A stretch of DNA of 64,000 nucleotides, taken from the NCBI GenBank assembly GCA_041737595.1, contig JBGSRK010000005.1, forward strand, positions 32,001 through 96,000. Reading direction: 5' to 3'. The translations under genes were made by a program, and so were the position numbers. The notes beneath the pieces were generated by a model, which had not been told where the DNA came from, made no database searches, and saw nothing but the letters and a program-made list of their open reading frames with translations. Positions 23,822-61,328 of the stretch are shown here, piece after piece (position 1 is the first letter of the stretch; each line of letters opens with the position of its first letter). The DNA comes from Patescibacteria group bacterium. GTDB lineage: Bacteria; Patescibacteriota; CPR2; UBA1875.

Positions 23822-23854
23822 AGACCGGCCTCGCGAAATCGCGAAGACCGGTCT
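23822..23854 (-). terminator. GC-rich 3' hairpin of unit 1a
   Basis: AGACCGG..TCGCGA/TCGCGA..CCGGTCT, followed by ATTGCTTTTT on minus. Confidence 0.7.
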
Positions 23855-23861
23855 TTACTTG

Positions 23862-24152
23862 TTATACCTCATACACGCACATCGTTACTTCGCCCAGACA
23901 AGCTGGTGCTTCAGCATGATATATCTTGCCTGTAGCGTGCACTTCGATTCGATAATGTAGAGTTACTCCTTCAAGATTACCGGAAAGAAGTGTGAACGAC
24001 CCCTTAATTGAATCAAGAAGATTGCGCTCATAGAGAGCATCAAGCAACTCTCTTCTAACTCGAATCGTTCCATTTGTTGTCTCTTTACCATCGGCCCGAT
24101 AGACCTTTGTGAAAAGTGGTTCCCTGTTGGAAACCGCAGCATCTGTCCCCAT
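23862..24152 (-). CDS. Hypothetical protein (GC-rich unit 1a), 96 aa
   Basis: SD AAGGGGG, own promoter and 3' hairpin. Confidence 0.7.
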   Translation of the reverse strand: MGTDAAVSNREPLFTKVYRADGKETTNGTIRVRRELLDALYERNLLDSIKGSFTLLSGNLEGVTLHYRIEVHATGKIYHAEAPACLGEVTMCVYEV

Positions 24153-24230
24153 CTCGTTACCCCCTTAAACTGATGGAATGAGTTTTTTCGACATATGCTG
24201 TGGTGCTTGAGGCATTTAACAAGCAAAACA

Positions 24231-24259
24231 ATAATAACTTTAATTTTGAGCCACGTCAA
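24231..24259 (-). promoter_or_regulatory. sigma70-like promoter of unit 1a
   Basis: TTGACG-17-TATTAT. Confidence 0.7.
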
Positions 24260-24286
24260 GCCAATATTATATTAACTTAGAAAAAC

Positions 24287-24312
24287 ACCCTAGGTATATT
24301 TCAACCTAGGGT
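24287..24312 (-). terminator. 3' hairpin of unit 1b
   Basis: ACCCTAGGT-8-ACCTAGGGT then GTTTTT on minus. Confidence 0.7.
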
Positions 24313-24334
24313 AGTTGCTCAACCAACGAGGCTT

Positions 24335-24664
24335 TCACCGATGTATCCTTGGATCAATTTGGGAAGTGAGTTCAAAATCAAAATACCTTATCTTCCCCTC
24401 CCCTTCACAAACAGTCCGGTAGACACAGTTGAACCTTCGCCCCTTGTTTCCAATTTCGAAGACTCCAACCGAAGTCTGAAACGCCTCAGCCCGGGAACCA
24501 AGTCGAATCCCGAACTTAGCCAACGTTCTACGTGCCTCGGCTACTATTTCGGTACACGATTGGCATGGATCTTTCCCGACAAGAGGGACCGTAATGATGC
24601 CATAGTTGGTCCTTCTATAACCAGAAGTGTCGCACTCCATCTTGAGCCTCCTCACGTCGCCCAT
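24335..24664 (-). CDS. Hypothetical protein with CxxC (unit 1b)
   Basis: Overlaps upstream ORF end; ends just before the 3' hairpin. Confidence 0.6.
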   Translation of the reverse strand: MGDVRRLKMECDTSGYRRTNYGIITVPLVGKDPCQSCTEIVAEARRTLAKFGIRLGSRAEAFQTSVGVFEIGNKGRRFNCVYRTVCEGEGKIRYFDFELTSQIDPRIHR

Positions 24665-24939
24665 TGCTTGAGTATGACATTACCATCCTTGAGTGAACAT
24701 GAATACACCGACATAAGGATGCCGGTTCGGGAATGAACCTGAATTCTGACAACTTGTGATAGATATCCACTTCGTGGGACGATGTTCTTATTGACATCGA
24801 ATGCACGAAATGACGTATCGCACTCGCTATCAGGAAGGCCATACCCATTGGAACGAATACGACGAAGTTCAGTGAAGACACACTCGAGCATATCTTCGTC
24901 AGGGCAACCTATGAGCTCAATGTTTATAGGCTCATTCAT
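24652..24939 (-). CDS. Hypothetical protein (unit 1b)
   Basis: Start MNEPINI at 24939 with GAGGT SD and ATGA overlap with upstream ORF. Confidence 0.62.
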   Translation of the reverse strand: MNEPINIELIGCPDEDMLECVFTELRRIRSNGYGLPDSECDTSFRAFDVNKNIVPRSGYLSQVVRIQVHSRTGILMSVYSCSLKDGNVILKQWAT

Positions 24940-25214
24940 GCTGCCACCTCTTCGATACCCGAGATAGTATACCAAGCTTTCACCTGGTAAGTACTATCTG
25001 TCTTTTCGACACGAGCTTCCACCTTTTGACCATCCGTATTAGTAAAATCAATACGAATGATTTTCTTGATGACGATTTTGACACTTACTGTCTTAAAACC
25101 GTAAACAAGAAGTAGAAGCTTCTCACAAGCAAGAGTCAGGGTACATATTTCTTTTGCGGTTGGACGTCCAGCTGAGGACTCAATCGCAAGATCAAGAATG
25201 TTATTCACATCCAT
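24936..25214 (-). CDS. Hypothetical protein (unit 1b)
   Basis: Start MDVNN at 25214 after AAGGGGGG; TATAAT at 25263-25258. Confidence 0.62.
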   Translation of the reverse strand: MDVNNILDLAIESSAGRPTAKEICTLTLACEKLLLLVYGFKTVSVKIVIKKIIRIDFTNTDGQKVEARVEKTDSTYQVKAWYTISGIEEVAA

Positions 25215-25297
25215 TTTGAGCCCCCCTTGGGTTCCTACCGTCTCTGACGTTATCGGCATTATATACCAAAAAAACTAATTTTAAAAGAATAAAAAAC

Positions 25298-25325
25298 AAA
25301 AAAAGCAGCTTTCGCTGCTTTTTTT
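25298..25325 (-). terminator. Intrinsic terminator after rpsJ
   Basis: A-tract GCAGC-TTTC-GCTGC T-tract. Confidence 0.8.
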
Positions 25326-25371
25326 GAATAGTTCTAGACCATCCGCCCATTGGCGAATAAAGTCTTCGGTT

Positions 25372-25692
25372 TTACATTTTTATTTCGATATCAACACCCG
25401 CTGGTAGAGAAATATTCATTAGACTATCAATTGTCTTCGCATTTGGTTCAAGAATATCTATAAGTCTTTTATGAACTCTCATTTCAAACTGTTCTCGGGC
25501 ATTTTTATCAACATTCGAAGCCCTAAGCACTGTTATTGGAGTTCGATCAGTTGGAAGCGGAATCGGACCAGAAATTTTTGAACCACTTCTTTGCGCGGTT
25601 TCAATTATTTGTTTAACAGACTGGTCAATGATCTTATGATCATATGCTTTCAGTTTAATTCTGATTCTTTGAGGTTTCTTTTCTTCTACCAT
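25372..25692 (-). CDS. rpsJ: 30S ribosomal protein uS10
   Basis: [30 protein letters not shown]. Confidence 0.97.
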
Positions 25693-25721
25693 TTTTTGTA
25701 AGGTTCCTTGCGTTTATCGCT

Positions 25722-26900
25722 TTATTTTGTAATCTTTGTTACTATACCCGCACCAACTGTTCTACCACCTTCTCGGATAGCGAACTTAAGACCTTGGTCC
25801 ATAGCAATTGGTTGCATAAGTTTAACATTGAAAGTGATTTTATCACCTGGCATTACCATTTCGGTACCTGCAGGCAGTTCTACTTCTCCTGTAACATCTG
25901 TTGTTCGAATATAGAATTGAGGTTTGTATCCTTTAAAGAATGGTGTATGTCGTCCACCTTCTTCTTTTGTTAGGATATAAACTTCTGCTTCAAATTCTGT
26001 GTGAGGTGTAATTGAACCTGGTTTTGCAAGAACCATACCACGTTCGATATCATCTTTTTCAATACCACGTAGTAAAAGTCCTGCGTTATCACCAGCTTGA
26101 CCTTGGTCAAGTTGTTTTTTGAACATTTCTACACCAGTAACAACAGTTTTTCTTGTTTCTTTTATCCCAACAATTTCTACTTCTTCATTGATTTTAATAA
26201 TACCTGATTCAATACGACCCGTAGCAACTGTTCCACGACCTTTAATCGAGAAAACATCTTCTACCGGCATAAGGAAAGGTTTATCTAAATCACGAACTGG
26301 TTCTGGGATAAAATCATCAAGAGCTTTAACAAGTTCAAGTATAGATTCTTCATATTTAGCATCGCCTTCAAGAGCTTTAAGAGCTGAACCACGAATAATT
26401 GGAGCATTGTCTCCATCAAAATCATATTTTGAAAGCAATTCTCTAATTTCCATTTCAACAAGATCAAGCATTTCTTCATCGGCTACCATGTCACATTTAT
26501 TCATAAAAACAACAATTTTAGCTACACCAACTTGGTTAGCAAGCAAAATGTGTTCACGAGTTTGTGGCATTGGACCATCTGTTGCAGCTACAACTAATAT
26601 AGCTCCGTCCATCTGAGCTGCGCCGGTAATCATGTTTTTAACATAATCTGCATGACCCGGACAGTCAACGTGTGCATAATGTCTTTTATCTGATTCATAT
26701 TCAACGTGAGCGGTAGAAATAGTTATACCACGTTCACGTTCTTCAGGGGCTTTATCAATATTTTCGAAGGCAGTAAATTCTGCTTTACCGTCTTTTGAAA
26801 GAACTTTAGTAATAGCAGCTGTCAAAGTTGTTTTCCCATGGTCTACGTGACCTATAGTACCGACATTGACATGAGGTTTTGAACGATCAAATGTTGCCAT
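25722..26900 (-). CDS. tuf: Elongation factor Tu
   Basis: [25 protein letters not shown]. Confidence 0.99.
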
Positions 26901-26994
26901 TTGGGGTCCTCCTTTAGATTAACTTTATAGTTTAGACAATAAAACTTATCCACAATAAGTGGAATTGGTAACTAACTTTTTGTGTTACTTCGCT

Positions 26995-27023
26995 ATTCTA
27001 TTATAATTTGAGTTGATTTGCAA
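26995..27023 (-). promoter_or_regulatory. tuf promoter
   Basis: TTGCAA-17-TAGAAT; TTATCCACA at 26946-26954 in the leader. Confidence 0.65.
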
Positions 27024-27045
27024 GTATTTTTATCTAAAATGACAG

Positions 27046-27067
27046 GACCCCGCCGGTTGGCGGGGTC
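27046..27067 (-). terminator. GC-rich 3' hairpin of unit 2
   Basis: GACCCCGCC-4-GGCGGGGTC; weak U-tract. Confidence 0.6.
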
Positions 27068-27088
27068 AATGGACAAGAAGAGGATCAT

Positions 27089-27265
27089 TCAGTCGAGGTG
27101 CATGTATGAAAAGGCTGCGTCACGTTCTTCGCGAAAAGTGCGTACCTTCGGCGAAACCAGTGATGCCAACCAAATCGGAAATTCGATCAGCATACACATA
27201 ATCGCGCTGAGTACGACGAGAGTGATCAAAACCGAATCGATCACCCATTCTTTGAATCTAAACAT
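27089..27265 (-). CDS. Small membrane protein, 58 aa (unit 2; not in ORF track)
   Basis: GGGAGG SD; MFRFKEWVIDSVLITLVVLSAIMCMLIEFPIWLASLVSPKVRTFREERDAAFSYMHLD*. Confidence 0.7.
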   Translation of the reverse strand: MFRFKEWVIDSVLITLVVLSAIMCMLIEFPIWLASLVSPKVRTFREERDAAFSYMHLD

Positions 27266-27275
27266 AGCGGCCTCC

Positions 27276-27596
27276 CTATCCTAGGCCCATTTCGTTGAGC
27301 TCGTCGAGAGTCGAGTTGTAGTCGGGCTCAAAGTTCGGTTTGATGAAACGGCCATGAATTCGAGATTCTTCGAGTTCCCTCACAAGCATATCATGTGCGG
27401 GCTTGTTGTGACATTGAGTACAAACGCTCGGCGACTCAAAGTCACAGTCGATACAGATCGCCGGATCAGGCCTGCCGGAGTTCTTTGCTCGCAACAGACG
27501 GATGACTCCGCCTGCCACAACTACTACAAAAGCGACCAAAAGAACCAAAACGATGGCACCTTCGGTTGTCGAGATAAGACCAATGAACCTCCCCAT
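27276..27596 (-). CDS. TM protein with CxxC-x7-CxxC (unit 2)
   Basis: GGGAGG SD, one TM, CIDC/CTQC. Confidence 0.72.
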   Translation of the reverse strand: MGRFIGLISTTEGAIVLVLLVAFVVVVAGGVIRLLRAKNSGRPDPAICIDCDFESPSVCTQCHNKPAHDMLVRELEESRIHGRFIKPNFEPDYNSTLDELNEMGLG

Positions 27597-27647
27597 GTTT
27601 CCTCCCTTAGGTTCGCACGGATTTACACCGTGAATATTAATACGATT

Positions 27648-27675
27648 ATTATATAATATTTTTAAAATAATTCAA
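27648..27675 (-). promoter_or_regulatory. sigma70-like promoter of unit 2
   Basis: TTGAAT-16-TATAAT. Confidence 0.6.
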
Positions 27676-27681
27676 TAACAC

Positions 27682-27708
27682 AAAAAGAGCCCACATGGGC
27701 TCTTTTTT
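27682..27708 (-). terminator. Intrinsic terminator after fusA
   Basis: AAAAAGAGCCCA-CA-TGGGCTCTTTTT. Confidence 0.8.
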
Positions 27709-27720
27709 ATAATTATTTTG

Positions 27721-29832
27721 TTATTCAGTTTCTAGATCTACTTCTGTTTCTGATTCTAATTTACTGCCACGTTTTGCTTTAATTTCTTCGGCAATGTTAT
27801 TTGGAACTTCTTCATAATGGTCAAATTCCATTGCATAAGAAGCTCTTCCTTGAGTCATAGAACGAAGGGATGTTGCATAACCAAACATTTCTGAAAGTGG
27901 GACAAAAGCATCTACCACTTTTGCACTAGCCCTATCTTCCATCTTTTGAATTCGGCCACGTTTTGAGTTAAGGTCACCCATAACATCACCCATAAATTCT
28001 TCAGGGGTTACAACTTCTACTTTCATAACAGGCTCCATAATTACTGGTTTACCCTTTTTAACACCTTCTTGGAAAGCCATTGAACCTGCAATTTTAAAAG
28101 CCATTTCTGATGAATCAACTTCGTGATATGAACCTTCAAGAAGTGTAACTTTAATATCTACAACTGGGTATCCAGCGATAACACCATTAGCCATAGCATC
28201 TTTAACCCCTTGTTCAACTGGTTTTATATATTCTTTTGGTACAGAACCACCAACAATTTTGTTTACGAATTCAAATCCTCCGCCTTGTTCCATCGGTTCA
28301 ACTTCAAGCCAAACGTGACCATATTGACCACGACCACCAGTCTGTTTGATATATTTACCTTCAGCTTTATTAGCATTTTTAATTGTTTCACGGTAAGCAA
28401 CTTGAGGTTTACCAACATTTGCCTCAACCTTAAATTCTCTTTTCATACGATCAACAATAATTTCAAGATGTAATTCACCCATACCACCAATAATTGTTTG
28501 GTTTGTATCTTCATCAGTTCTAACCACAAAAGTTGGATCTTCTTCTGCTAAACGAGAAAGTGCAACACCCATTTTTTCTTGGTCAGCTTTAGTTTTTGGT
28601 TCTATTGCAATATGAATAACTGGATCAGGGAAAGTTATTGCCTCAAGTATTACTGGATTTGCAGCATCACAAAGTGTATCTCCAGTTGTAACTTTTTTCA
28701 AGCCAACTGCAGCTGCAATCTCTCCTGAATATACTTGATCAACATCTTCTCTCTGATTTGCATGTAATCTAATAATTCGGCCTAAACGCTCTTTTTCACC
28801 AGTGGTTGAATTATGAACATATGAACCAGCCATAATTGTTCCAGAATATACACGGAAAAATGCGAGTTTACCAACAAATGGATCAGATGCAATTTTGAAA
28901 GCAAGAGCAGTAAATGGTTCTTCGTCAGAAGCATGTCTTTCAACCTCTTCGCCTGTCTTAACATCAATTGCCTTAATTGCAGGAACATCAAGTGGGTTTG
29001 GTAAAAAATTTACGATAGCATCAAGTAATGTTTCTACTATTACTCCTCGTCCATCACCACCCATAATTGGAAAAAAATCACCGGCTAGAACAGATTTTCG
29101 AATAGCTGTAATAAGTTCTTCTTCGGTCAGTTCTCCCCCGTTAAGATATTTTTCCATTATAACTTCATCAGCTTCTACAGCTTTTTCTAAAAGCTCGTGT
29201 CTATATTTTTCGACTTTTTCTTTCATATCTTCAGGGATTTCAATTTCAGTTAATTCTTTATCTTTATAATCTGTATATTTGTATGCTTTTCTAGTAATAA
29301 TATCGACAACACCATTTATGGCTTGTTCAAAACCTATTGGTAATTGTATAGGATATGCATTTTTTGAAAGTCTTTCTTTTATTGAATCAAGGGATTTATA
29401 AAAATCTCCACCAGTTTGATTTATTTTATTAATAAAACAAATTCGTGGGACATGATATTTATCAGCTTGGCGCCAAACTGTTTCAGATTGAGGTTCTACA
29501 CCCATTTTCCCATCAAAAACCACAACTGCACCATCAAGCACTCGAAGTGAACGTTCAACTTCAACTGTAAAGTCCACGTGTCCTGGAGTATCAATAATAT
29601 TTATTCTTTTTTGTTTCCAAAAACAAGTTGTTGCTGCAGAAGTAATTGTTATCCCACGTTCTCTTTCCTGTTCCATCCAATCCATAGTTGCTTCACCTTC
29701 GTGAACTTCACCTATTTTATGAGTTTTACCAGTTCTATAAAGAACACCTTCTGTAACTGTGGTTTTACCGGCATCTATATGTGCGATAATACCAATATTT
29801 CTAGTATCTTTTAAGCTATATTCTCGAGCCAT
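27721..29832 (-). CDS. fusA: Elongation factor G
   Basis: [28 protein letters not shown]; G4/G5 atypical. Confidence 0.98.
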
Positions 29833-34688: not shown

Positions 34689-37600
34689 TTATTTGTCCTC
34701 CTCTTTTAACACATCAAAATCGCTAATTGATTCTTCTTTTTCTACATCCACCTTTGGAGAAACTTTATCAGCTTTATCTCCTTCTAATAACACAGTATCA
34801 CCTAACTCTTTTATATTTTTTTCATAATCTTTTTCAATTAATTCTTCTGCAGAAAATTCTTTTGCCTTTTTACCATCTTCTGATAATAAATCAATTGAAA
34901 GTCCAAGTCCTTGAAGTTCTTTTACAAGAACATTAAATGATTCAGGGACTCTTGGTTCACGAATATCTTCACCTTTAATGATTGACTCATAGGCTTTTGA
35001 CCTTCCAAGAACATCATCTGATTTTATGGTTAGAATTTCTTGTAATGTATGTGCTGCACCATAAGCTTCAAGTGCCCACACTTCCATTTCTCCAAATCTT
35101 TGACCTCCCATTTGAGCTTTACCACCAAGCGGTTGTTGAGTAACCATTGCATAACTTCCGATTGATCGGGCATGAATCTTTTCTTCTACCATATGATGGA
35201 GTTTCATAATATATGTAACACCGACTGTAACTTTTTGATCAAATTTTTCACCAGTACGGCCATCATATAGAACTTCTTTTCCATCTTCTGATTTACCAGC
35301 TAATTTTAATTCATTTTTTATTTGATCAACTTTAGCACTTAAAAATACTGGACATGCAACTTTATAACCAAGTGCGCTAGCAGCCCAACCAAGATGAACT
35401 TCAAGAATCTGCCCAATATTCATACGAGCAGAAACCCCAAGTGGGTTTAGAATAATGTCAACTGGTGTCCCATCTTCAAGATATGGCATATCTTCTACTG
35501 GAGCTATTTTTGCAATAACACCTTTATTACCATGTCGACCGGCCATTTTATCACCAACTGTTATTTTAACTAAACGAGCTACTAATACATCTATCTGTTT
35601 TATAACTCCCGCAGAAAGATCATCCCCTTTATCTCTTTCCCGAGTATTTACACCAACAACTTTACCGTAAATTCCGGGTGGGATACGAAGAGACGTATCT
35701 TTAACATCTCTAGCCTTTTCCCCAAATATTGCGCGAAGCAATCTTTCTTCTGCAGAAAGTTCAGTCTCACCTTTTGGAGTAATTTTACCAACCAAAATAT
35801 CTCCGGTTGCAACTTCGGCTCCAATTCTGATTATTCCGTCTTCATCTAGATTTCTTAATGCTTCTTCACCAACATTTGGGATATCTCTTGTAACCATTTC
35901 CGGCCCAAGTTTTGTATCTCTAATATCAATTGTAAAATTTTCGATATGTATAGAACTATATGCATCTGATTGAACAAGTTTATCTGAAATAATAATCGCA
36001 TCTTCATAGTTGTAGCCACTCCAAACCATAAAGGCAACTGTTAGATTTTTACCGAGAGCAATTTCTCCCTTTTCTGTAGCCGGACCATCAATTAATGTAT
36101 CACCTTTTTTAACTTTTTGGCCGTTAGAAACAGCCGGTCTTTGGTTAAAACAGGTATCACTATTTGTTCTATCAAATTTACTAATTTCATATGCTATTTC
36201 TTCACCGCCAGTATATTTAACTTTTACCAAAGAACCAGTTGAAGAAGTAACTGTACCATTACCAGAAGCAACGATTGTAAGCCCTGTATCAACTGCAACT
36301 TTGTTTTCTAAACCTGTACCAACAATTGGAGCACTTGGCATTAGAAGTGGAACTGCTTGTCGTTGCATATTTGCAGCCATAAGAGTTCTTTTACCATCAT
36401 CATGTTCAAGGAAAGGAATGAGACCAGTTGAAACAGATACTGTTTGTACTGATGAAACATCCATATAATCAACTTCGTTATTAGATACTTCTTGAGCTTC
36501 ACCAAATTTACGAGCTGTAACAAGATCTTCAATAAAATATCCCTGATCATCAATTTTTACATTTGCTTGAGCAATAATTGCCTTTTCTTCAATGTCAGCA
36601 GTTAAATAGATTATCTCTTTAGTCACACAAGGCTTAACATTTATTTCTTTTAATTCAGTAATTTTTGCTAATTTTTTTGCAAGAGCTTCGCTAACTTTTT
36701 CGCCCTTTTTAGCAACAATGACATTTTTTGATTTAATGTTTTCGGCAATAACATATCCGACTGATGATTTCCCATCATTCGGTAAAATTCTTTTCACTAT
36801 TCTATATGGAGTCTCTAAAAATCCATAATCGTTTACCTTGGCATATGATGCAAGATAGTTTACAAGACCAATATTTGGTCCTTCAGGAGTTTCATTTGGA
36901 CAAATACGTCCATAATGAGTTCTATGAACATCACGTACTTCAAATCCTGCTCTTTCTTTTGAAAGACCTCCGGGCCCGAGTGCTGATAAACGTCTTTTAT
37001 TAGCAAGTTCTGCAAGTGGGTTTGTTTGTTCCATAAACTGAGATAACTGAGATGAAGCAAAAAATTCCTTAATGACAGCAGATATTGGCCTAACATTTAT
37101 AAGTTGAGAAGGAGTAGTTGTTTGTGGTTCAGAAGTAGACATTTTATCTTTAATATTTCTCTCTGCTCTTAAAATACCAACTCTAAATCTTTGTTGTAGA
37201 AGTTCCCCAACACTTCTTATTCGACGATTTGCTAAATGGTCAATATCTGTTGTTTCACCTTGAACAACATTTAATCTAACAACTTCTTTAACAATTGCAA
37301 CAAAATCTTCTTTTCTTAAAATTCTATTTTCTTTAATATTTTTAATATCAATATTTAGACTCTTATTCATTTTATAACGACCAACCCTAGAAAGATCATA
37401 TTTTTTAAAGTCAAAAAACATACCTTCTATTAATTGTCGTGCATTATCAACAGTTGCTAAATCACCAGGACGGATTTTTTTATAAACTTCAAGAAAAGCT
37501 TCTTCTTGAGTTTCTGTAGGATCTTTTGAAAGTGTTGATTCAATATAATCCATTTCTGGGTCAGTATTAACATCTGCAAACATCTTTTTAATTTTACTAT

Positions 37601-38207
37601 TATCTGGGTAACCAAATGCTCGTAATAATGAGGTCACTGCAATTTTTCTTTTTCTGTCGATTTTTACAAAAATTGCACCGCTTGCAGATGTTTCCATTTC
37701 AAGCCATGCACCTCGGCCAGGAATTATCTTTGCGCCAAATAATTTCTTATCACCTGAATACTCAGCAGTGAAAAATACACCAGCGCTACGTACAAGCTGA
37801 GAAATAATAACACGTTCTACACCATTGATAATAAATGTCCCTCGTGGGGTCATAACTGGGAAATCTCCCATAAATATTTCTTGTTTTTTTGATTTACCCG
37901 TTTCAAGATTTTTAAGAGTAACTTCTACTTTAAGAGGTGCTTCAAAATTTATCTTTTTACCACGAGATATTTTTTCTGTATATTTTGGTTCATCTAAAAA
38001 ATAATCGCTGAATTCAAGAGAAAACATTTTTCCTGAATAATCAACGATTGGGTTCACTTCTTCAAATATTTCAGCGATACCTTCTCTTAAAAACCAATTG
38101 TATGAATTGGTTTGAATTTCGATTAGGTTAGGTAGTTCTAAAACATTTTGGACGGGCTGAAAAAATTTTCTTTTACCGGCTGGGGGGGTTGGGTTTTGTT
38201 TCGACAT
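34689..38207 (-). CDS. rpoB: RNA polymerase beta subunit
   Basis: [31 protein letters not shown]. Confidence 0.99.
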
Positions 38208-38298
38208 AAAAATACGGCTCCCTTTCCATGTAGGAGTTAGTTAATATTCCCTTTTAATAAAAACGCCTCTTGTAGAACTAAACTGTTAGGCACTAGAA

Positions 38299-38327
38299 AT
38301 TGTAACCGACTTTTTCCACAGTGTCAA
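38299..38327 (-). promoter_or_regulatory. rpoB promoter
   Basis: TTGACA-17-TACAAT. Confidence 0.75.
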
Positions 38328-38343
38328 TATTTTTTTAAAAGCA

Positions 38344-38370
38344 AAGGGCCACACGTATTGTGTGGCCCTT
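38344..38370 (-). terminator. GC-rich 3' hairpin of unit 3
   Basis: AAGGGCCACAC-5-GTGTGGCCCTT then TGCTTTT on minus. Confidence 0.7.
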
Positions 38371-38382
38371 GCCATGAATTGG

Positions 38383-38934
38383 TTATTTGGTGTCGATTTG
38401 TGTCCCAGTACTAATCGTCCCCCTTGGGACAATGAAATAGTACTCTGTCCCTCCGTAAACCTCTTGCCATTCGAAATTCAAACCGCAAGAGTTGAAAACA
38501 AATTCATGCCACCAACCATTCTTCGCATAACGACGGATAGCGAAAAGCCTTCTCTCAAGTCGTGGCAAGGTCACAGAGTCCTGTTCCTGAATATAGATCG
38601 GGTATTCTTTCTTGACCAACGTTTGTTGGACAATTCCTTTGTCTGTGTTGAAGGCATAGAAATACGTTGGTGTTGCACCGACAGTACCACAACCGAGAAA
38701 GATATCACCGCTTGCATTAGCACTATCGGAGAGTGCAACTAGGTGTGTAGTATAGACGACTGGCTTCGATTCTTCAATTGAAGCATTGTTACCCGCCCAA
38801 ATGAGGAAAAAGAAGAATATTGCCATCAATATTGAGAAACCACAACCTAAACAGCCATTCCACTCTTCCCAGAACATTAGAACGAAGAAACCAATAATGC
38901 CCACAACAATAACAGCGCTCAAGGACCAACCCAT
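38383..38934 (-). CDS. Hypothetical 2-TM membrane protein (unit 3)
   Basis: Start MGWSL at 38934 after GGAGG; two N-terminal TM helices. Confidence 0.72.
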   Translation of the reverse strand: MGWSLSAVIVVGIIGFFVLMFWEEWNGCLGCGFSILMAIFFFFLIWAGNNASIEESKPVVYTTHLVALSDSANASGDIFLGCGTVGATPTYFYAFNTDKGIVQQTLVKKEYPIYIQEQDSVTLPRLERRLFAIRRYAKNGWWHEFVFNSCGLNFEWQEVYGGTEYYFIVPRGTISTGTQIDTK

Positions 38935-38973
38935 GGCTACCCTCCAATCAAAGTGCACCTTTTGGTCAAGCTG

Positions 38974-39002
38974 ATTATATAACTAGAGTTGGTTTTAGTC
39001 AA
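38974..39002 (-). promoter_or_regulatory. sigma70-like promoter of unit 3
   Basis: TTGACT-17-TATAAT. Confidence 0.78.
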
Positions 39003-39005
39003 TGA

Positions 39006-39605
39006 TTATCTGGATTTTATTATCTCATCTATTACACCATATTTTTTTGCCTCTAAGGCTGTCATGAAATAATCACGCTCAACGTCAGTCTCTATTTTTG
39101 TTTTTTTCTGGCCAGTGTGAGTGGCAAGTATTCCATTTAAACTATCTTTTATCCTTAGTATTTCTTTGGCTTGAATTGAAATATCTGTCGCTTGTCCTTC
39201 TGTTCCGCCCCAAGGTTGGTGAATCATAACTCTTGAATTAGGGAGTGAATATCTTTTACCTTTTTCACCAGCCGCAAGTAAAATTGATGCGGCAGAAGCT
39301 GCTTGGCCTACACAAATTGTTTGGACATCACATTTTATAAACTGCATTGTGTCATATATCGCAAGAGAAGATGTTACTGAACCACCGGGAGAATTAATAA
39401 AAAGTTTAATATCTTTTTTATCATCTTCTGCTTCCAAAAAAAGAAGCTGTGCAATTACAATATTTGCGAAATGATCATCAATTTGTTGTCCTAAAAAAAC
39501 AATTCTATCTTTCAAAAGACGAGAATAAATATCATAAGCTCGCTCTCCCATTGAAGTTTGTTCAATTACGGTAGGTACTAATATTTGAGATTTTGTTTCA
39601 GACAT
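39006..39605 (-). CDS. clpP: ATP-dependent Clp protease proteolytic subunit
   Basis: [28 protein letters not shown]. Confidence 0.97.
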
Positions 39606-39617
39606 TATTACTCCAAT

Positions 39618-40908
39618 CTATTTTATTACGTTTTTATCCCATAAAGCTTGCATTGTTTTATGGATAACAAGAGTATTCCCTATTTCTCTTCGTCTGTCTG
39701 GAGTTTCATAGGCAGCTTTTACATCTTCAGCTGAAGCCCCTTCGCTTGATATTGAAACAATTCGATCAATTTCAGCATCAATTTCTTTCTCTTCTATATT
39801 AATATTTTCTCGCCTGGCTACTTCCCCAAGAACAATCCCAATTTTAACTCTTTTTTCAGCTTCTGGTTTCATCTCTTTCTCAAGATCTGGTAAGGTTTTT
39901 TTACTCATTTCCAAAAACTGCTCCATTGTTAAACCTGACCCAGAAAGATTATGTTCAGCTTCATGAATCATTCTATGAACTTCTTCTTCAACTAACATAT
40001 TAGGAACTTCAATTTTATTTTTTTCTGTAATTGTTTTTAAGATGTCTTCTTCTGTTAATCTTTTTTGTTCTAACTCTTTTTGGAATTCAAGTTCTTTTCC
40101 CAGCTCTTCCTTAAGTTTAGCTACAGTGTCAAAACCAACTTTTTTTGCAAAATCATCGTCTGCTTTTGGTGTGACTATTTCATAAACATTATTTAATTTT
40201 ACTTTAAAATTTGTTTTTTTCCCGGCAAGATTTTTAGCATGATAATCAGCTGGAAAAGTAATATCGATATCAAATTCATCCCCAGCCTTATGCCCAACTA
40301 TTTTCTCTTCAAAACCAGGAATTAACATATTAGAACCTAAAATCACGGGATGATTTTTTGAAGTACCTCCATCAAATGGAAGACCTGTCATTGTACCTTC
40401 AAAGTCAATTTCAACCTTATCTTCTAATTTTGCGGCTCTTTTTACAACAGTTTCTTCATTCTGTTTTTTTTTGCAAACCTTCGAGAGCAACAGCCTTATC
40501 TTTTTCTGTTATTTTTTCTTTTCTGGGTTTTATCTTTAAACCTTTATATTTAAAATCTTTAAGTTCTGGAAGAACTGCAACAGTGGCCTCAAAAAGTATT
40601 TTTTCTCCTGGGATGAATTGAACAACTTTAATTTGTGGGTTTCCTAATGGTGAAATTTTTTCAGCGACTAATGCTTCAAAATATGATTCAGGGATTGCCT
40701 TATCAACAACTTCTGCCCAAAATTTATCTTTTCCAACTTCTTTTTCAACAACATGAAGTGGGGCCTTCCCTGGACGAAAACCAGGTACTTTTACAGAACC
40801 TCCAAGGTCTTCTAATACCATTTGAGTCACTTTTTCAAGCTTAGTTTTATCTACTTCAATCTCAAATTTTACTTCACTCCCCTTATTATCTAGAACTTTA
40901 TAACCCAA
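39618..40908 (-). pseudogene. tig: Trigger factor split by a +1 frameshift in an A9 run (ORFs 40456-40908 and 39618-40490)
   Basis: N-part VPGFRPGKAP; C-part FKBP domain (IDFEG...FDGG, IPGFEE); deleting one T in 40464-40472 fuses them. Confidence 0.85.
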
Positions 40909-41992: not shown

Positions 41993-42077
41993 GCGGACGT
42001 GGTGGAATTGGTATACACGCCAGTCTTAGGAACTGGTGGGGAAACCCGTGGAGGTTCGAGTCCTCTCGTCCGCACCA
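41993..42077 (+). tRNA. tRNA-Leu(TAG)
   Basis: GCGGACGTGGTGGAATTGG...CT-TAG-GA, long variable arm, CCA end. Confidence 0.95.
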
Positions 42078-46829: not shown

Positions 46830-49445
46830 TTGGCAATGCCGTTAAGATATAAAAACGCAAAAAGACATTTAAAAAGGGGCACTAATAAACCTGGTTTTAG
46901 ACGTTCCACAGTTTCTTCTAGTCGAAAAAACCATAAGTTTTCTTTTTCTGATTTAAAACCTAAAACAGTTATTGGAAATGTAAAAAAGCTATTTACTACT
47001 AAGGAAGGGCTTAAAAAACTTGGGACCTTTGCTGTTATTGGCCTTGCTGTTGTGGTTGGGCTTTTTGGTTGGTATGCAAAAGACTTACCTACTCCAAATA
47101 AAATCAATAGCCGAATTTCGGCCCAAACAACACAAATATTTGATAGAAATGGAAAACTTTTATATGAAATGCATGGCGATAAAAATCGTATTTTAGTTGA
47201 ATTTGATGAAATCCCAGAAAATGTAAAAAATGCTACTGTAGCAGTAGAAGACAAAAACTTTTATAAACATGGTGGGTTTTCTGGAACACGTATTTTAGGT
47301 GCAGCTTTTTATAATTTACTTGCAGGGGGCAAAATTACCCAAGGTGGATCTACTATAACTCAACAATTTGTTAAAAATGCCCTTCTAACAAATGAACAAA
47401 GATATTCTCGAAAAATAAAAGAACTTATACTTTCGATTGAAATTGAAAGTATGTATAAAAAAGACGATATATTAAAAATGTACCTAAATGAGATACCGTA
47501 CGGTTCAAATGCATATGGGATTAAGGTTGCTGCAAAAACATATTTTGATAAGGATTTAAAAGATTTAACTCTTGAAGAGTCAGCAGTTCTTGCTGCTCTC
47601 CCACAAGCACCAACATATTATTCACCATTTGGTAGTAATAAAGATGCCTTGTTAGTACGAAAAGATGTAATTATTAATTTAATGGCCGATCAGAAATACA
47701 TTACTAAGAAAGAAGCCGAAGAAGCAAAAAAGAAAGAAATAGTATTTTCCAACAACCCATATGGTTCGATAACAGCCCCTCATTTTGTTATGTTCGCCCG
47801 TGAAAAATTAGTAGAAAAATATGGGGAACAGATGGCTGCTGAGGGTGGATTAAAAGTCTATACTTCACTTGATTTAGATATGCAACTTGCAGCAGAAAAA
47901 GCAGTAAAAGAAGGAGCTGACAAAGTTATTAAATATGGCGGTTCTAATGCGGCACTAGTTTCAATTGATCCTAAAACTGGCCAAATACTTGCTATGGTAG
48001 GAAGCCGAGATTTCTTTAACCAAGATATTGATGGCAATGTAAATGTTACAACAATGGCAAGACAACCAGGTTCTTCGTTTAAACCATATGCTTATGCAAC
48101 TTCATGGAAGAAAACAAATTGGGGGCCAGGAAGTACTTTATATGATTTTAAAACTGACTTTGGTGGAGGTTATATCCCCTCTAATTATGATGGGAAAGAT
48201 CACGGGGTTCAATCAATGAGAACTGCCCTTGATGGTTCATTAAATATCCCAGCCGTAAAAGCACTATATATTGCTGGAATGGACGAGACGCTAAAAACAG
48301 TTTCAGAAATGGGTATTTCAACATTAAATGACCCTTCTAAATATGGCCTTTCACTTGTACTAGGGGCTGGGGAAGTTAAACCAGTTGAACATGCTGCTGC
48401 TTTTGGTGTATTTGGGAATGGTGGTATAAAACAAGAGCAATCATGGTTTGTTAAAATTGAGGATGCAAAAGGTAAAACCCTTGATGAGTATAAACAGAAA
48501 CCGGGCAAACAAGTAATTGATCCGCAAATTGCATATCTTATGTCAAATGTCCTTTCAGATAATAATGCAAGGGCATATGTATTTGGGAGTAGAAACTCTT
48601 TAACACTCCCAGATAGACCAGTAGCTGCAAAAACTGGGACAACAAATGATTTTAAAGATGCTTGGACCGTTGGTTTTACTCCTCAGGTTTCTACTGCTGT
48701 TTGGGTCGGGAATAATGACGGCACTCCAATGAAAAGAAGTGCAGATGGTTCAATTGTTGCAGCCCCTATTTGGCAGAATTATATGAAGGCAGTTACAGCA
48801 AAGATGCCAAAAGAAGAATTTAAGCGTCCATCTGGCATCAAAACAGTTACGATTGACGCAATCACTGGAAGAAAAGTTACTTCTGCAACAAAACAAACAA
48901 GAACAGATCTATTCCCTTCTTGGTACAAAACACCTAATGTTAATGGACAAGCACAGGAAATAAAAATTGATAAATCATCAGGAAAACTGGCAACTGATAA
49001 ATGCCCCGCAGAATTAATTGAAACTCGTATATATTCGCCCATAACTGCTGAAATTCCATCAACAGATCCATCTTTCGCACGCTGGAATGCCCCTGTACAA
49101 AAATGGGCAGTATCACAAGGGTATTCAACAGATATGGGTGGTATCCCAACAGAGGCTTGCGATATTCATACTGGGGCGGATCTTCCCACTCTTTCAATTA
49201 CATATCCTGGCGACGGAGATACAGTTGCAAAAGATTTCACAGCCCAAATGACCATTCAAACTCCAGCCGGTTTTTATAGCGCCACTTTTACTATTGCAGG
49301 GAAAACATATACTGCAAAAACAAACGGGTCTTTTTATGAAGCAAATATTTCCATTACAACTGCTGGCGAATATGAACTTACAGCAACCGTTAAAGATAGT
49401 AAGTCACAAACAGTTACTAAAAAAGTTAAAATCAAAGTTCTTTAA
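46830..49445 (+). CDS. Class A penicillin-binding protein (PBP1A family) with C-terminal Ig-like domain
   Basis: EDKNF..H.G, GGSTITQQ, SSFK, SLN, KTG. Confidence 0.95.
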   Translation: MAMPLRYKNAKRHLKRGTNKPGFRRSTVSSSRKNHKFSFSDLKPKTVIGNVKKLFTTKEGLKKLGTFAVIGLAVVVGLFGWYAKDLPTPNKINSRISAQTTQIFDRNGKLLYEMHGDKNRILVEFDEIPENVKNATVAVEDKNFYKHGGFSGTRILGAAFYNLLAGGKITQGGSTITQQFVKNALLTNEQRYSRKIKELILSIEIESMYKKDDILKMYLNEIPYGSNAYGIKVAAKTYFDKDLKDLTLEESAVLAALPQAPTYYSPFGSNKDALLVRKDVIINLMADQKYITKKEAEEAKKKEIVFSNNPYGSITAPHFVMFAREKLVEKYGEQMAAEGGLKVYTSLDLDMQLAAEKAVKEGADKVIKYGGSNAALVSIDPKTGQILAMVGSRDFFNQDIDGNVNVTTMARQPGSSFKPYAYATSWKKTNWGPGSTLYDFKTDFGGGYIPSNYDGKDHGVQSMRTALDGSLNIPAVKALYIAGMDETLKTVSEMGISTLNDPSKYGLSLVLGAGEVKPVEHAAAFGVFGNGGIKQEQSWFVKIEDAKGKTLDEYKQKPGKQVIDPQIAYLMSNVLSDNNARAYVFGSRNSLTLPDRPVAAKTGTTNDFKDAWTVGFTPQVSTAVWVGNNDGTPMKRSADGSIVAAPIWQNYMKAVTAKMPKEEFKRPSGIKTVTIDAITGRKVTSATKQTRTDLFPSWYKTPNVNGQAQEIKIDKSSGKLATDKCPAELIETRIYSPITAEIPSTDPSFARWNAPVQKWAVSQGYSTDMGGIPTEACDIHTGADLPTLSITYPGDGDTVAKDFTAQMTIQTPAGFYSATFTIAGKTYTAKTNGSFYEANISITTAGEYELTATVKDSKSQTVTKKVKIKVL

Positions 49446-52958: not shown

Positions 52959-53009
52959 AAAACAATTATCAAGTACTCTTAATTGAATTACAAGTGTACA
53001 AAAATAAGG

Positions 53010-53042
53010 CGGACCCCGACGACAATATGTCGAAGGGGTCCG
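53010..53042 (-). terminator. GC-rich 3' hairpin of unit 4
   Basis: CGGACCCC..CGACA/TGTCG..GGGGTCCG. Confidence 0.65.
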
Positions 53043-53141
53043 TTTGGTATCAACTCAGCAGGATTCTCAGGGAGGCCAAGAATTCTTTTCACCCCAGATG
53101 AGGGACTGAGCGACGCCAGAGTATTCAGTTTTTGGGATTGC

Positions 53142-53354
53142 CTAGAACCGTGCGAGTATGCGGAAGAGCTGAAAAGCGAAGAACCCTCCAAAGAGAATTA
53201 TCATCGCAAGCCCTCCGAACAGAAACTCGAACCGTTCTTTACCTTCATTTCTTACGGCGAGGTATATCATGCGAAGGCCGAAACCCAACATGACTACCAT
53301 CCCCGCCCCCAAAAGGGCGGCAAAGACAATCAATTCGTTCACTGATATTTCCAT
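53142..53354 (-). CDS. Small 2-TM membrane protein, 70 aa (unit 4)
   Basis: GAGAGG SD; two hydrophobic helices. Confidence 0.7.
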   Translation of the reverse strand: MEISVNELIVFAALLGAGMVVMLGFGLRMIYLAVRNEGKERFEFLFGGLAMIILFGGFFAFQLFRILARF

Positions 53355-53471
53355 GGTTCTTGCCTCTCTCTTACTACGACTACTAGTGTGATTAATCTAC
53401 GACTTTAGCTTCGTTGCGTACTCCTTTCCGCTTTAGGCGGGGTTGGACACGGCGAGAGACACTCGACCAAT

Positions 53472-53500
53472 ATATTATCATATATTATATATTATGTCAA
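53472..53500 (-). promoter_or_regulatory. sigma70-like promoter of unit 4
   Basis: TTGACA-17-TAATAT. Confidence 0.65.
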
Positions 53501-58333: not shown

Positions 58334-58348
58334 GCTTATTATTAAAGT

Positions 58349-58948: not shown

Positions 58949-58964
58949 ATAACCAGTATAGACT

Positions 58965-58989
58965 AAAAAAGACCCTTCTGGGTCTTTTT
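58965..58989 (-). terminator. Intrinsic terminator after rplS
   Basis: AAAAAAGACCC-TTCT-GGGTCTTTTT. Confidence 0.75.
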
Positions 58990-59671
58990 ATTTTTCAGTT
59001 GGAGTTTCTTCTACTACTTTTTCCGCGTTTTTACCAATTGAATCTTTCTCTTTTGGTTGTTCTTCTTCGGCTTTTTCAACCCCTGCATTTGTTTCTTTCA
59101 CTTCATCTACTTGGTGATCAATATCTTCGGAATCTTCATCTTTTTTATCTTCAGATTCAGCTTCTTTTATTTCGGCTTTTTCAACCTCTTCTAGTGGGAC
59201 TTCTTCTGATTCAGCTTCTGCAACCTGTTGTTCTGATAGTTCTGTAATTTCTGCATCCGTTGGTTCTTCTTTTACTTCTGATGTTTTTTCTGGTTCTTCT
59301 TCAGATACATTAACTGCAAGCGCGTCAAACCCCTTTTCTCGTAAACGTGCTGATTTACCTTGAAGTTTTCTAAGATATGTAAGATAAGCTTGTCTGACTT
59401 TTGCACGTTTTTTTATTTCAATTTTTGCTATGTTTGGTGAATATAATGGATAACTTTTTTCGATACCAACTCCGAAAGATATTTTTCTTACTAAAAATGT
59501 TTTCTTTAAACCACTACCACTTACTTTAAGCACAACTCCTTCAAAAATCTGAATACGTTCTTTATTCCCCTCTTTGATTTTTTGATGTACACGAACAGTA
59601 TCGCCAGACTTTAATGCTGGGATTTTTTTCAGGTATTTTTCTTCAACTTTTTGGACAAGTGTAGTATTCAT
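58988..59671 (-). CDS. rplS: 50S ribosomal protein bL19 with long acidic extension
   Basis: [30 protein letters not shown]. Confidence 0.96.
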
Positions 59672-59692
59672 AAGATTATTCTTTGCCGTAAG

Positions 59693-59721
59693 ATAATATC
59701 AAAAATTAGAGTAAGAGTCAA
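59693..59721 (-). promoter_or_regulatory. rplS promoter
   Basis: TTGACT-17-TATTAT. Confidence 0.68.
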
Positions 59722-59746
59722 TAAAAATGTCTTTTTACATAGAGTG

Positions 59747-59771
59747 CGAGCCGCCCCGAAGGGGCGGCTCG
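59747..59771 (-). terminator. GC-rich 3' hairpin of unit 5
   Basis: CGAGCCGCCCC-3-GGGGCGGCTCG; no immediate U-tract. Confidence 0.55.
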
Positions 59772-59960
59772 TTTCCGACAAAGAGTCGGTCTGGTGTCAT
59801 CGTTACCCTACCCTGAGGGATTAGAATCCCAAGGGCAACGTACCAGACGAAAAGGTCCTCAGGGCTTTCGGGGACTTGCATTTTCGTCCAATTTCCGGCT
59901 TACGCCAGAATGACAATTGCGCGAATGCGCTAGCCCATTTTGAGTGGGCAGAAGTAGTTC
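59772..59960 (-). ncRNA. Unassigned highly structured RNA (3' region of unit 5)
   Basis: Six consecutive stem-loops, one with a GTAA tetraloop; no ORF. Confidence 0.65.
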
Positions 59961-59963
59961 ACG

Positions 59964-60107
59964 TTAGGTAGTCTCTGACACTTTCTGCTTTGCTCTCTTG
60001 TTGGGGTTTGAAAACCTTCCCTCAAGAATAGCAATAACGAACAGAGCGAGACCAATGAAGCCAATGATAGCAGCTACAATATAAGCTGCAATTCCCAAGG
60101 GGATCAT
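59964..60107 (-). CDS. Small TM peptide, 47 aa (unit 5; not in ORF track)
   Basis: MIPLGIAAYIVAAIIGFIGLALFVIAILEGRFSNPNKRAKQKVSETT*, 6 nt after the upstream stop. Confidence 0.65.
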   Translation of the reverse strand: MIPLGIAAYIVAAIIGFIGLALFVIAILEGRFSNPNKRAKQKVSETT

Positions 60108-60113
60108 CTTTCG

Positions 60114-60521
60114 TCACAGATCCAGTGACTTGCGTCGATACTCGTCCGGCTCGTTGTAGCCGAGAAATGAATCCGACTCAACGGGCTCACATTCGAACCT
60201 TGGATGATTCGGACAAGTATCGTTGTGACAGTAGGGAGTCTTGAAACCCTTGACAGCCCCAGGAGCGATTCTCCCAAGACTAGTTTGGACACGAATGACT
60301 TTGTTCGCAAGACAAGGGACAAGTGCTCCATGCTCGCAAACGGTGCCATTCTTACCTGCGATTGCGATTGCCATGCAAGCATCGAGAACAACGTCTGGAT
60401 CGTTTCTGTAATCCTCATTCTCGAATTTGAGGAGTGAAAGACCCATTTCTGAAGCAGCTGAAATGGCGTGATTATCCCCAGCCTTTGCTGCTTCAAGTAG
60501 TTCGTGTAATTCTTTGTGCAT
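60114..60521 (-). CDS. Cys/His-rich hypothetical protein (unit 5)
   Basis: Start MHKEL at 60521 after AGGAGG; CEH..C and C.N.TC..H...C. Confidence 0.7.
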   Translation of the reverse strand: MHKELHELLEAAKAGDNHAISAASEMGLSLLKFENEDYRNDPDVVLDACMAIAIAGKNGTVCEHGALVPCLANKVIRVQTSLGRIAPGAVKGFKTPYCHNDTCPNHPRFECEPVESDSFLGYNEPDEYRRKSLDL

Positions 60522-60538
60522 GATTCCTCCTGGTGTGA

Positions 60539-60886
60539 TTAGGCCGTCGCGAATGATGCGTCGGCCTGGGCTGCAACTTGGGGGATAGGCACGATATTGA
60601 TGATGGCCGTGCCACAATTCTGGCACATACCTTCTTCGTAGGCAAGCCGGGTGGCTTCCTGGTGGCACCGATGTGATTCTGTCTTGACAGAACTCGCACA
60701 TTCGGGGCAACCACCTTCATAGTAGAAGGTACGCTTCATCTTGCGTGAAACACGACATTTCGAACGAACGACGCCAAGCTTGAAGCTCGCGTCGTTGAGC
60801 GAAAGTGCCATTTCGGTCAGAGTTGGCCCTTGGATTGGCTCAGTCTGATCGCCACGCAAACGATTCCGGGGAATCTTGTCGGACAT
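60539..60886 (-). CDS. Zn-finger-like hypothetical protein (unit 5)
   Basis: GGGAGG SD; CPEC, HRCH, CQNC. Confidence 0.68.
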   Translation of the reverse strand: MSDKIPRNRLRGDQTEPIQGPTLTEMALSLNDASFKLGVVRSKCRVSRKMKRTFYYEGGCPECASSVKTESHRCHQEATRLAYEEGMCQNCGTAIINIVPIPQVAAQADASFATA

Positions 60887-60999
60887 AACGCTTCCTCCCT
60901 CTAGTCTCTGGTTTTCCTTCCTAGGAACCCAGAGAAACTAGGGACCTGCTGGAATTACCATTGCATCACTCCTCTCACACTCCGTGAGCCTTTTCGGCT

Positions 61000-61221
61000 C
61001 TACATTTTATACCACTCACCAACCCCGATAAGGTTGACAAGGGTATGCCACTGAACCTCCCACCAATCACCTAGTGACTTTCGTGCACTCGGGGTAGTCG
61101 TTAGGTATTGAATATACCCAGCAGCAATCAAGATGAATGAACAGGCGATTATAGTAATCGCTATGTTGAGTCCCTCCTTGGGGAAAGAAATCCCCAAGAG
61201 AATAATATCATTAGTAATCAT
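61000..61221 (-). CDS. Small TM protein (unit 5)
   Basis: GGAGGAG SD; one TM. Confidence 0.68.
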   Translation of the reverse strand: MITNDIILLGISFPKEGLNIAITIIACSFILIAAGYIQYLTTTPSARKSLGDWWEVQWHTLVNLIGVGEWYKM

Positions 61222-61299
61222 GGCTCCTCCATTGACGTGAACTAATTGACAAGTTACTAGAAGTACCCCTATCTAGGAATACGAATTCTCGAAGACCAA

Positions 61300-61328
61300 A
61301 TCATATCATATTTGAGCTTAAAAGTCAA
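61300..61328 (-). promoter_or_regulatory. sigma70-like promoter of unit 5
   Basis: TTGACT-17-TATGAT. Confidence 0.72.

Follow-up and report, generated by a model that had tools for sequence, protein, structure and literature searches.

Six short GC-rich transcription units that lie between the core operons of a Patescibacteria group bacterium are rather probably, though not assuredly, horizontally exchanged, stand-alone accessory cassettes, moron-like islets at hot spots. They are contained in a stretch of 64,000 nucleotides (nt), hereafter the window, that comprises positions 32,001 to 96,000 of contig JBGSRK010000005.1 (C54) of the source assembly GCA_041737595.1 (G000; 1.09 Mb in 143 contigs). 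This assembly, whose main contigs have 32-37% GC, was compared with four genomes of sister genera of the same family (G001-G004); the genomes of the nearest relatives are 0.5-1.2 Mb in size. The minus strand of the window carries core genes (ribosomal proteins, rpsJ, tuf, fusA, rpsG/L, rpoC, rpoB, clpP, clpC, dnaE), named from their translations and from matches in the relatives. All six units (U1a, U1b and U2 to U5) are encoded on the same strand, co-oriented with their neighbours. The original prediction, which had been read from the sequence, was largely right as an observation, but it had set aside a foreign or mobile origin, which is now the best-supported explanation, U3 appearing as a clean insertion of a phage-family gene.

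U3 (38335-39005; here and below, positions are those of the window and all features of the units are on the minus strand) is located between the clpP stop codon and the rpoB promoter. An alignment of the five genomes revealed approximately 670 nt in G000 that are extra relative to the clpP-rpoB spacers of G001-G004. The extra DNA extends from 4 nt past the clpP stop codon to just before the conserved rpoB promoter and consists of exactly one promoter (promoter-like site, 38974-39002), one gene (38383-38934) and one terminator (38344-38370). The gene encodes a protein with two transmembrane (TM) helices and a beta-rich domain that matches phrog_8077 (1.9e-12), the only significant family match among the ten unit open reading frames (ORFs) scanned against PHROGs. 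The nearest Atlas clusters of the protein are virus-dominated (score 0.93), and a weak match is found in a 484-kb record of an uncultured phage. Of 400 other genomes of the phylum, two contain the protein, which is absent from the three family genomes within that sample. Judged by the alignment, U3 is a clean insertion of a phage-family membrane-protein gene. The surroundings of the site merit a separate description: the rpoB promoter region (TTGACAyTGTGGAwAA ... TAAyATT) and leader, at 38207-38335 of the minus strand, are conserved at the DNA level in all five family genomes, and in the four relatives the clpP stop codon lies about 15-25 nt upstream of the rpoB -35 box.

A two-change-point likelihood fit recovered all six GC-rich units where they had been seen by eye. 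The blocks extend over 23823-24213 (U1a), 24305-25257 (U1b), 27041-27620 (U2), 38341-38973 (U3), 53008-53468 (U4) and 59742-61195 (U5), with a GC content of 0.45-0.51 within the blocks versus 0.25-0.35 outside. At the 5' edge of every unit there is a promoter-like site with 10-11 of 12 consensus matches (-35 boxes starting at 24259, 25285, 27675, 39002, 53500 and 61328); such sites are not enriched overall, with 52 versus 49.5 expected in one scan and 30 versus 27.5 expected in another. The promoter is followed by small ORFs led by Shine-Dalgarno (SD) sequences, with a top SD/ATG score in 11 of the 12 unit ORFs, and by a GC-rich hairpin, in agreement with the layout first described. The terminator-like hairpins of U1b, U2 and U3 were picked up by a scan; those of U1a, U4 and U5, which have weak T-tails, were seen by inspection of the sequence. 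A rough match of the GC-rich span to the predicted transcript had also been claimed. It holds on the terminator side of all six units, where the low edge of the block is 2-27 nt from the terminator end, and on the side of the predicted transcription start site (TSS) in five, where the high edge is -6 to +21 nt from the TSS, but not at the start of U5, where the edge lies 98 nt inside. The leaders and 3' regions are GC-rich as well. Also as described, the units share no sequence or paralogue among themselves or with the remaining assembly, and no flanking direct repeats were found.

The units differ in gene content. U1a (23812-24259) has a promoter-like site at 24231-24259, a predicted TSS at about 24224, a single ORF for a soluble protein of 96 residues (23862-24152) and a hairpin at 23822-23854. 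The adjacent U1b (24278-25285; promoter-like site 25258-25285, terminator 24286-24313) contains three abutting or overlapping ORFs (24936-25214, 24652-24939 and 24335-24640). U2 (27037-27675; promoter-like site 27648-27675, terminator 27046-27067) occupies the gap between fusA and tuf and encodes a protein with a TM segment and a CxxC...CxxC motif (27276-27596) and a second TM protein (27089-27265). U4 (53000-53500; promoter-like site 53472-53500, hairpin 53011-53041), between clpC and the next genes, has a single ORF of 70 codons (53142-53354) with two hydrophobic stretches, between a GC-rich leader of 111 nt and a GC-rich 3' region of 142 nt. U5 (59740-61328; promoter-like site 61300-61328, hairpin 59748-59770), downstream of dnaE, comprises four ORFs, at 61000-61221 (TM), 60539-60886 (Zn-ribbon-like, six Cys), 60114-60521 (135 residues) and 59964-60107 (TM), and a GC-rich 3' region of about 225 nt.

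In the proposed mechanism, an islet would be about the size of one transcription unit, in which small genes with strong SD sequences lie between a sigma-70-type promoter and an intrinsic terminator, and its products would be membrane, Zn-ribbon-like or small soluble proteins. Equipped with its own signals, it would be expressed and insulated alone in a gap between core operons. The islets would belong to a flexible compartment of foreign composition (GC content at third codon positions, GC3, of 0.35-0.6 versus about 0.22) that is gained and exchanged horizontally. Entry would occur by illegitimate insertion, as in U3, or by replacement at a few hot spots bordered by highly conserved genes, namely fusA|tuf, clpC|radA and the site downstream of dnaE. 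Deletion pressure in a streamlined genome would trim the acquisitions to the bare transcription unit, and this trimming would, along with an AT-richness that promoters and T-tails cannot avoid, bring the GC-rich span into register with the transcript. The products would likely act at the cell envelope and serve in encounters with phages or host cells, in the manner of superinfection exclusion; the only two grounds for this assignment are that U3 belongs to a phage protein family and that half of the ORFs encode membrane proteins.

The composition of the units was followed through the genome and recurs in many more such units. GC3 is bimodal over 823 crude gene calls; core ORFs of at least 200 residues have a mean GC3 of 0.219 and the unit ORFs range from 0.35 to 0.59. 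The 145 genes with a GC3 of at least 0.35 encode proteins of median length 106 residues with 1.6% Cys, and 4% of them have a BLASTP match in a 263-kb contig of G004. For the 647 genes with a GC3 below 0.30, the corresponding values are 199 residues, 0.7% Cys and 39%. Among the reciprocal best hits, 214 of 216 are AT-type in G000. The GC-rich compartment amounts to about 11% of the coding bases and includes ordinary enzymes (SAICAR synthetase in two copies, adenylosuccinate lyase, AIR carboxylase, ThyX, thymidylate kinase, dCTP deaminase), a large serine recombinase and an extra HisRS that is about 30% identical to the family's own HisRS and to the copy on an AT-type contig. The best GTDB matches of the GC-rich HisRS, with 80 of 501 relatives kept, are 36-41% identical and are headed by metagenome-assembled genomes of Saccharibacteria; at this level of identity no donor can be named. 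Taken by its gene calls, the profile of the compartment is that of a flexible, presumably transferred gene pool. Some of these genes are clustered: an extra HisRS-like gene and those for adenylosuccinate lyase, AIR carboxylase and SAICAR synthetase are found at G000:C67:70381-80388 (GC3 0.56-0.61), and further HisRS-like matches, a second and a third, are located on the AT-type contig C137 and at C67:75838-76758, respectively.

The same sites were inspected in the sister genera. GC-rich islets are present in the fusA-tuf gap of G001, G003 and G004, in the clpC-radA gap of G001, G002 and G003 (G004 has none there), and on the downstream side of dnaE in G001, G002 and G004. All of them exceed the genome of their host in GC content, and the syntenic islets keep a GC3 excess of about +0.2-0.35 over local core genes. 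The rpsJ-rplC stretch, which contains U1 in G000, is without a GC-rich block in G004. Similarity between the islet proteins is low: the 70-residue U4 protein (U4_70) is 26-28% identical to a 70-residue protein of G003, with the C-terminus in common; U5_73 is 27-28% identical to a G001 protein with which it has the ending LVNL.G.G.W.K in common; and U2_106 is 35% identical over 31 residues to a CxxC...CxxC protein of G004. The syntenic islets have conserved hydrophobic stretches and Cys motifs in common. For the core proteins on either side, identity amounts to 66-86%. In the region of U1, four AT-type genes (20252-23680) separate U1a from rplC in G000 and only one gene, of 254 codons, is located between rpsJ and rplC in G004, so that the two genera differ in how the S10 operon is split.

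Several points count against exchange. The sites of U2, U4 and U5 evidently hold distant homologues and not unrelated genes. If these were vertical orthologues, their synonymous sites should long since match the composition of the host, so that a simple old transfer followed by amelioration would fail and repeated replacement or a local force would have to be invoked. Relative to each of the five family genomes, the GC content of the islets is higher by about 0.10-0.16, an unusual direction for such a difference. They lie outside any phage genome, and are therefore moron-like rather than morons; neither an integrase, by the domain scan of the unit ORFs, nor an att site or flanking repeat was found at them. 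Finally, the promoters and the starts and ends of transcription are predicted ones.

It is conceivable, if on balance unlikely, that the units, at least those at the U2, U4 and U5 sites, are native, vertically inherited and fast-evolving genes whose transcripts are held GC-rich by selection on the RNA; such selection could favour a thermostable structure, or protection from RNases that prefer AU, and hence long-lived mRNAs in a hot spring. The persistence of syntenic islets with weak homologues and GC3 excess in three to four other genera would agree with this, as would the GC-richness of untranslated leaders and 3' regions in addition to codons, the coincidence of the block edges with predicted TSS and terminators, and the origin of the sample from a hot-spring metagenome. 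The RNA folds better than expected as well: in 200-nt windows from the middle of coding sequences (CDS), the mean fold z was -1.25 for GC-rich and -0.17 for AT-type genes (45 each, p 0.001), and whole-unit z values range from -2.2 to -8. Yet the antisense strands also beat their shuffles (mid-CDS -0.91; U1a -5.8, U3 -3.1), the terminator hairpin supplies part of each unit's z, and highly expressed core genes remain at a GC3 of about 0.15-0.2. U3 is demonstrably inserted and absent from the family. Moreover, since ordinary enzymes, a recombinase and the extra HisRS have the same composition, it looks like a mark of origin and not of RNA design. Horizontal exchange is ranked above the native-gene explanation because it accounts for U3, the enzymes, the recombinase and the extra HisRS as well. 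A broader version, to which we attach a small probability, is that the whole family of small hot-spring bacteria keeps transcript-delimited, fast-evolving genes for small proteins at fixed sites and that a transcript-level force maintains their GC excess in coding and non-coding parts. That force would then be selection for thermostable, RNase-resistant or end-closed mRNAs, not foreign origin, with U1a as the clearest end-closed case.

End closure had been the central claim of the original prediction, which ascribed to every unit 10-23 nt of complementarity between the 5' leader or start and the region around the last stop codon. The TSS were predicted from the -10 boxes before any helix was inspected. 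Because energies from RNA.duplexfold scaled with segment length, they were replaced by helix scores. In a gapped test of the leader and start against the segment from the last 30 nt of the CDS to the terminator, with 400 dinucleotide shuffles, U1a was clearly beyond chance (score 40, z about 5.2-5.3, p about 0.005). U3 (p 0.047) and U2 (p 0.087) were marginal, and U4 (p 0.65), U1b (p 0.87) and U5 (p 0.96) were at chance. Fisher's combined p for the six units was 0.03 on the sense and 0.04 on the antisense strand. Ungapped helices, tested with 1000 dinucleotide shuffles, yielded p values of 0.015 for U3, 0.069 for U2, 0.34 for U5, 0.60 for U1a, 0.71 for U1b and 0.92 for U4. The suggestion that G-U pairs favour the sense strand applies to U1a (helix score 40 versus 31 antisense) and U2 (33 versus 23) but not to U3 (30 versus 31).

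The helix of U1a comprises about 23 pairs and joins nt 1-30 of the predicted RNA with the last codons, the stop codon and a few bases before the terminator (5' arm 24189-24224, 3' arm 23857-23892). It occurs alike in the structure of minimum free energy (MFE) and in the centroid structure. The MFE of the whole unit has a z of -6.0, and none of 100 shuffles folds as well. The SD sequence and the AUG lie outside the closing helix, the AUG being within a small local hairpin. Whole-transcript folds were compared with shuffles for U1a, U2, U3 and U4. In the MFE structures the ends of U3 are closed by 20 pairs, a number reached by 2 of 24 shuffles, and those of U2 by 18 pairs, reached by 3 of 24; the ends of U4 are not closed. 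The marginal helix of U2 (27578-27598 with 27073-27094) and the 13-bp helix of U3 (38925-38937 with 38371-38383) take in the AUG, and their 3' arms start at the final stop codon. Within its own coding sequence, U3 offers two partners that suit its 3' arm equally well.

Across the genome, GC-rich units pair their ends no more strongly than AT-type units. The tests were run on crude gene calls with a coding density of 0.77 and sometimes truncated starts, on units of up to 2500 nt and, in the gapped test, of at least 150 nt. A gapped z above 2 was obtained for 7 of 107 GC-rich (6.5%) and 18 of 306 AT-type units (5.9%; Mann-Whitney p 0.15), and an ungapped p below 0.05 for 6.3% of 127 GC-rich and 4.8% of 312 AT-type units (Mann-Whitney p 0.985). 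U1a ranked highest of the 413 units; U2 and U3 (z 2.2) fall in a tail common to ordinary genes. The edge-window complementarity of 86 GC-rich blocks defined by a hidden Markov model showed no shift relative to 90 AT genes (Mann-Whitney p 0.43) in a test that is underpowered, U1a itself scoring only z 1.7; the 10 GC-rich and 3 AT cases with z above 2 include tRNA clusters and short blocks with overlapping windows. As pairing is at chance level genome-wide and in U1b, U4 and U5, it is not a property of the class, and it is real and exceptional in U1a only. The closing helix may stabilise that one mRNA.

With the class property falls most of the case for end-closed, translationally locked mRNAs that are silenced by hok/AapA-like fold-back and activated by processing, an interpretation that we now consider improbable. 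The class does not pass the shuffle control that had been set for it. In its favour are the helix of U1a, first of 413 units and found in both MFE and centroid structures, the AUG-containing helices of U2 and U3 with their paired ends, the hydrophobic stretch in 6 of the 12 ORFs and the precedent of the hok mRNA, which according to excerpts of PMC9841398 is closed by a long-distance 5'-3' interaction. Against it stand the lack of enrichment over ordinary genes, chance-level pairing in half of the units and the internal competitors of the U3 3' arm. The U1a product is a soluble alpha+beta protein of 96 residues, and the SD and AUG of its mRNA remain outside the helix. No antisense RNA gene is evident, promoter-like sites occurring at the chance rate, and neither Pfam, PADLOC nor NCBIfam yielded a type I toxin family. 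Several units are operons of three to four genes and 1-1.5 kb. Two proteins, U2_58 and U5_47, do combine small size with hydrophobicity, but both are encoded distally in operons.

The proteins point to genuine genes. Several of the unit proteins are Cys-rich. No family was assigned at threshold in Pfam, NCBIfam or PADLOC, each scanned with 10 of the 12 ORFs (Pfam, like PHROGs, with all but U5_73 and U5_47; PADLOC and NCBIfam with all but U2_58 and U5_47). Metagenomic homologues of equal length were found for U1a (63% and 59% identity), U3 (65%) and the 135-residue U5 protein (U5_135; 66%). Homologue DNA for U1a was encountered neither in viral nor in metagenome contigs, and an alignment-based search of 400 genomes of the phylum found the U1a family only in G000; homologue DNA for U3 was likewise not found in viral and metagenome contigs or, using the U3 alignment, in genome contigs. 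The homologues P0002 (U3), P0004 and P0005 (U1a) and P0007 (U5) are therefore known as proteins only. The AlphaFold2 (AF2) model of U1a has an alpha+beta fold (pLDDT 82.7); Foldseek retrieved nothing at E <= 0.001 for it in PDB or BFVD (best 0.023 and 0.011), and there was no usable ESM Atlas match. The model of U3 (pLDDT 44.6) was too poor for a structure search. U1a, P0004 and P0005 are 59-63% identical to one another, with the first 13 and the last 17 residues nearly invariant. The last codons of U1a, which encode nearly invariant residues, occupy the same stretch as the 3' arm of the closing helix; this overlap fits a double constraint on protein and RNA but is no proof of it.

GC-rich islands in AT-rich thermophiles are often structured non-coding RNAs. 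Were the units such RNAs, the ORFs would be accidental products of GC-rich sequence, and the islands in an AT-rich hot-spring genome, their negative MFE z values and the many overlapping ORFs on both strands of the GC-rich DNA would find a simple explanation. We consider this very improbable. The equal-length homologues of U1a, U3 and U5_135, the confident model of U1a, the strong SD signals and the hydrophobic and Cys motifs conserved in synteny all argue for translation, and the units match no Rfam family at the gathering threshold, permissive scans yielding sub-threshold noise only.

The least credible explanation is that the units are assembly chimeras or contaminants of the bin. The bin does contain many small contigs of 58-62% GC (C5, C34, C93, C105, C127, C136 and others), those of 58-61% having raised the suspicion, that look foreign and contamination-like; they do not match the DNA or the proteins of the units. 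The DNA of the window is present in a hot-spring and a biofilm metagenome of one study; for the U5 stretch, no RNA run was among the data sets listed. Logan contigs of run X1, which may be the assembly's own source, span 22716-25497, 26610-27405, 27387-28027 and 37600-40016 with 0 differences, and a contig of the second sample X2 spans 23914-25614, also with 0 differences. The depth of the bridging contigs equals that of the flanks (about 8-10 in X1, 4-7 in X2). Chimeric junctions, which would have overturned the original prediction, are thus not found at U1, U2 and U3, the units covered by this check, and sister genomes carry islets at the same sites.

The islets, in the preferred reading as exchanged cassettes, resemble phage morons. 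Morons have a GC content unlike that of their neighbours and their own promoter and terminator, according to excerpts of PMC3594210. All six units have predicted signals of both kinds and deviate in GC content (0.45-0.51 versus 0.25-0.35); they represent extra DNA relative to the relatives, cleanly so for U3, and their cargo is often a small membrane protein. Unlike morons, they have as neighbours core bacterial operons (rpsJ, fusA|tuf, clpP|rpoB, clpC, dnaE) and no phage or prophage, the U2, U4 and U5 sites are filled in several genera, and the islets exceed their host in GC content. Hypervariable or flexible genomic islands occupy integration hot spots between core genes. Here too, the same core-gene gaps hold compositionally odd, poorly conserved genes across genera, but the islets measure only 0.5-1.6 kb, consist of a single transcription unit, are not bordered by an integrase, tRNA or repeat and display distant homologues rather than wholly different cargo. 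The units resemble integron cassettes in the small ORFan cargo close to the promoter and, in U1a, in an imperfect inverted repeat at the ends. In contrast to cassettes, the units are dispersed and form no array, each has its own promoter and rho-independent terminator, and a general domain scan of the unit ORFs, run without a dedicated attC model, detected no integrase domain.

With the type I systems hok/Sok and AapA/IsoA, U1a shares a helix that joins the extreme 5' end to the region upstream of the terminator, U2 and U3 share the inclusion of the AUG, and some ORFs encode small hydrophobic peptides. Type I toxin peptides have an upper limit of about 60 residues. The pairing is not general in the units, the U1a product lacks the small size and hydrophobicity of such toxins, the SD sequence of U1a lies outside the helix, no plus-strand pair of promoter and terminator inside the units is convincing as an antisense RNA gene, and homology to known toxins is lacking. 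A limited literature search on horizontal transfer and GC content in hot-spring Patescibacteria, by titles and abstract openings, retrieved no description of such islets.

Further features of the window stand apart from the units. Five tRNAs are its sole Rfam matches at the gathering threshold: a cluster of four (Trp, Thr, Tyr, Thr) at 829-1791 on the minus strand, which forms a GC-rich island of its own, and tRNA-Leu at 41993-42077. An ORF of 871 codons at 46830-49445, the only long ORF of that part on the plus strand, has a raised GC content of 0.36-0.40, positive GC and AT skews and an internal GC-rich block at 49036-49270; this ORF, too, may have been acquired. Perfect bidirectional hairpins with A- and T-runs on their flanks are found at 27682-27707 and 58966-58989, where genes converge or follow in tandem; their probable function is termination in both directions.

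If the units are exchanged accessory cassettes, very small, streamlined genomes would still keep a sizeable flexible gene pool. This pool would be packed as minimal, self-sufficient units in a few gaps among the most conserved genes, including the str/S10/rpoBC neighbourhood, and would offer a compact model for the movement of accessory genes without integrases. Persisting at syntenic sites where protein identity is only 26-35%, the GC excess points either to a GC-rich gene reservoir or to a force at the level of the transcript. U1a, for its part, is a concrete candidate for an end-closed mRNA outside the world of toxin-antitoxin systems.

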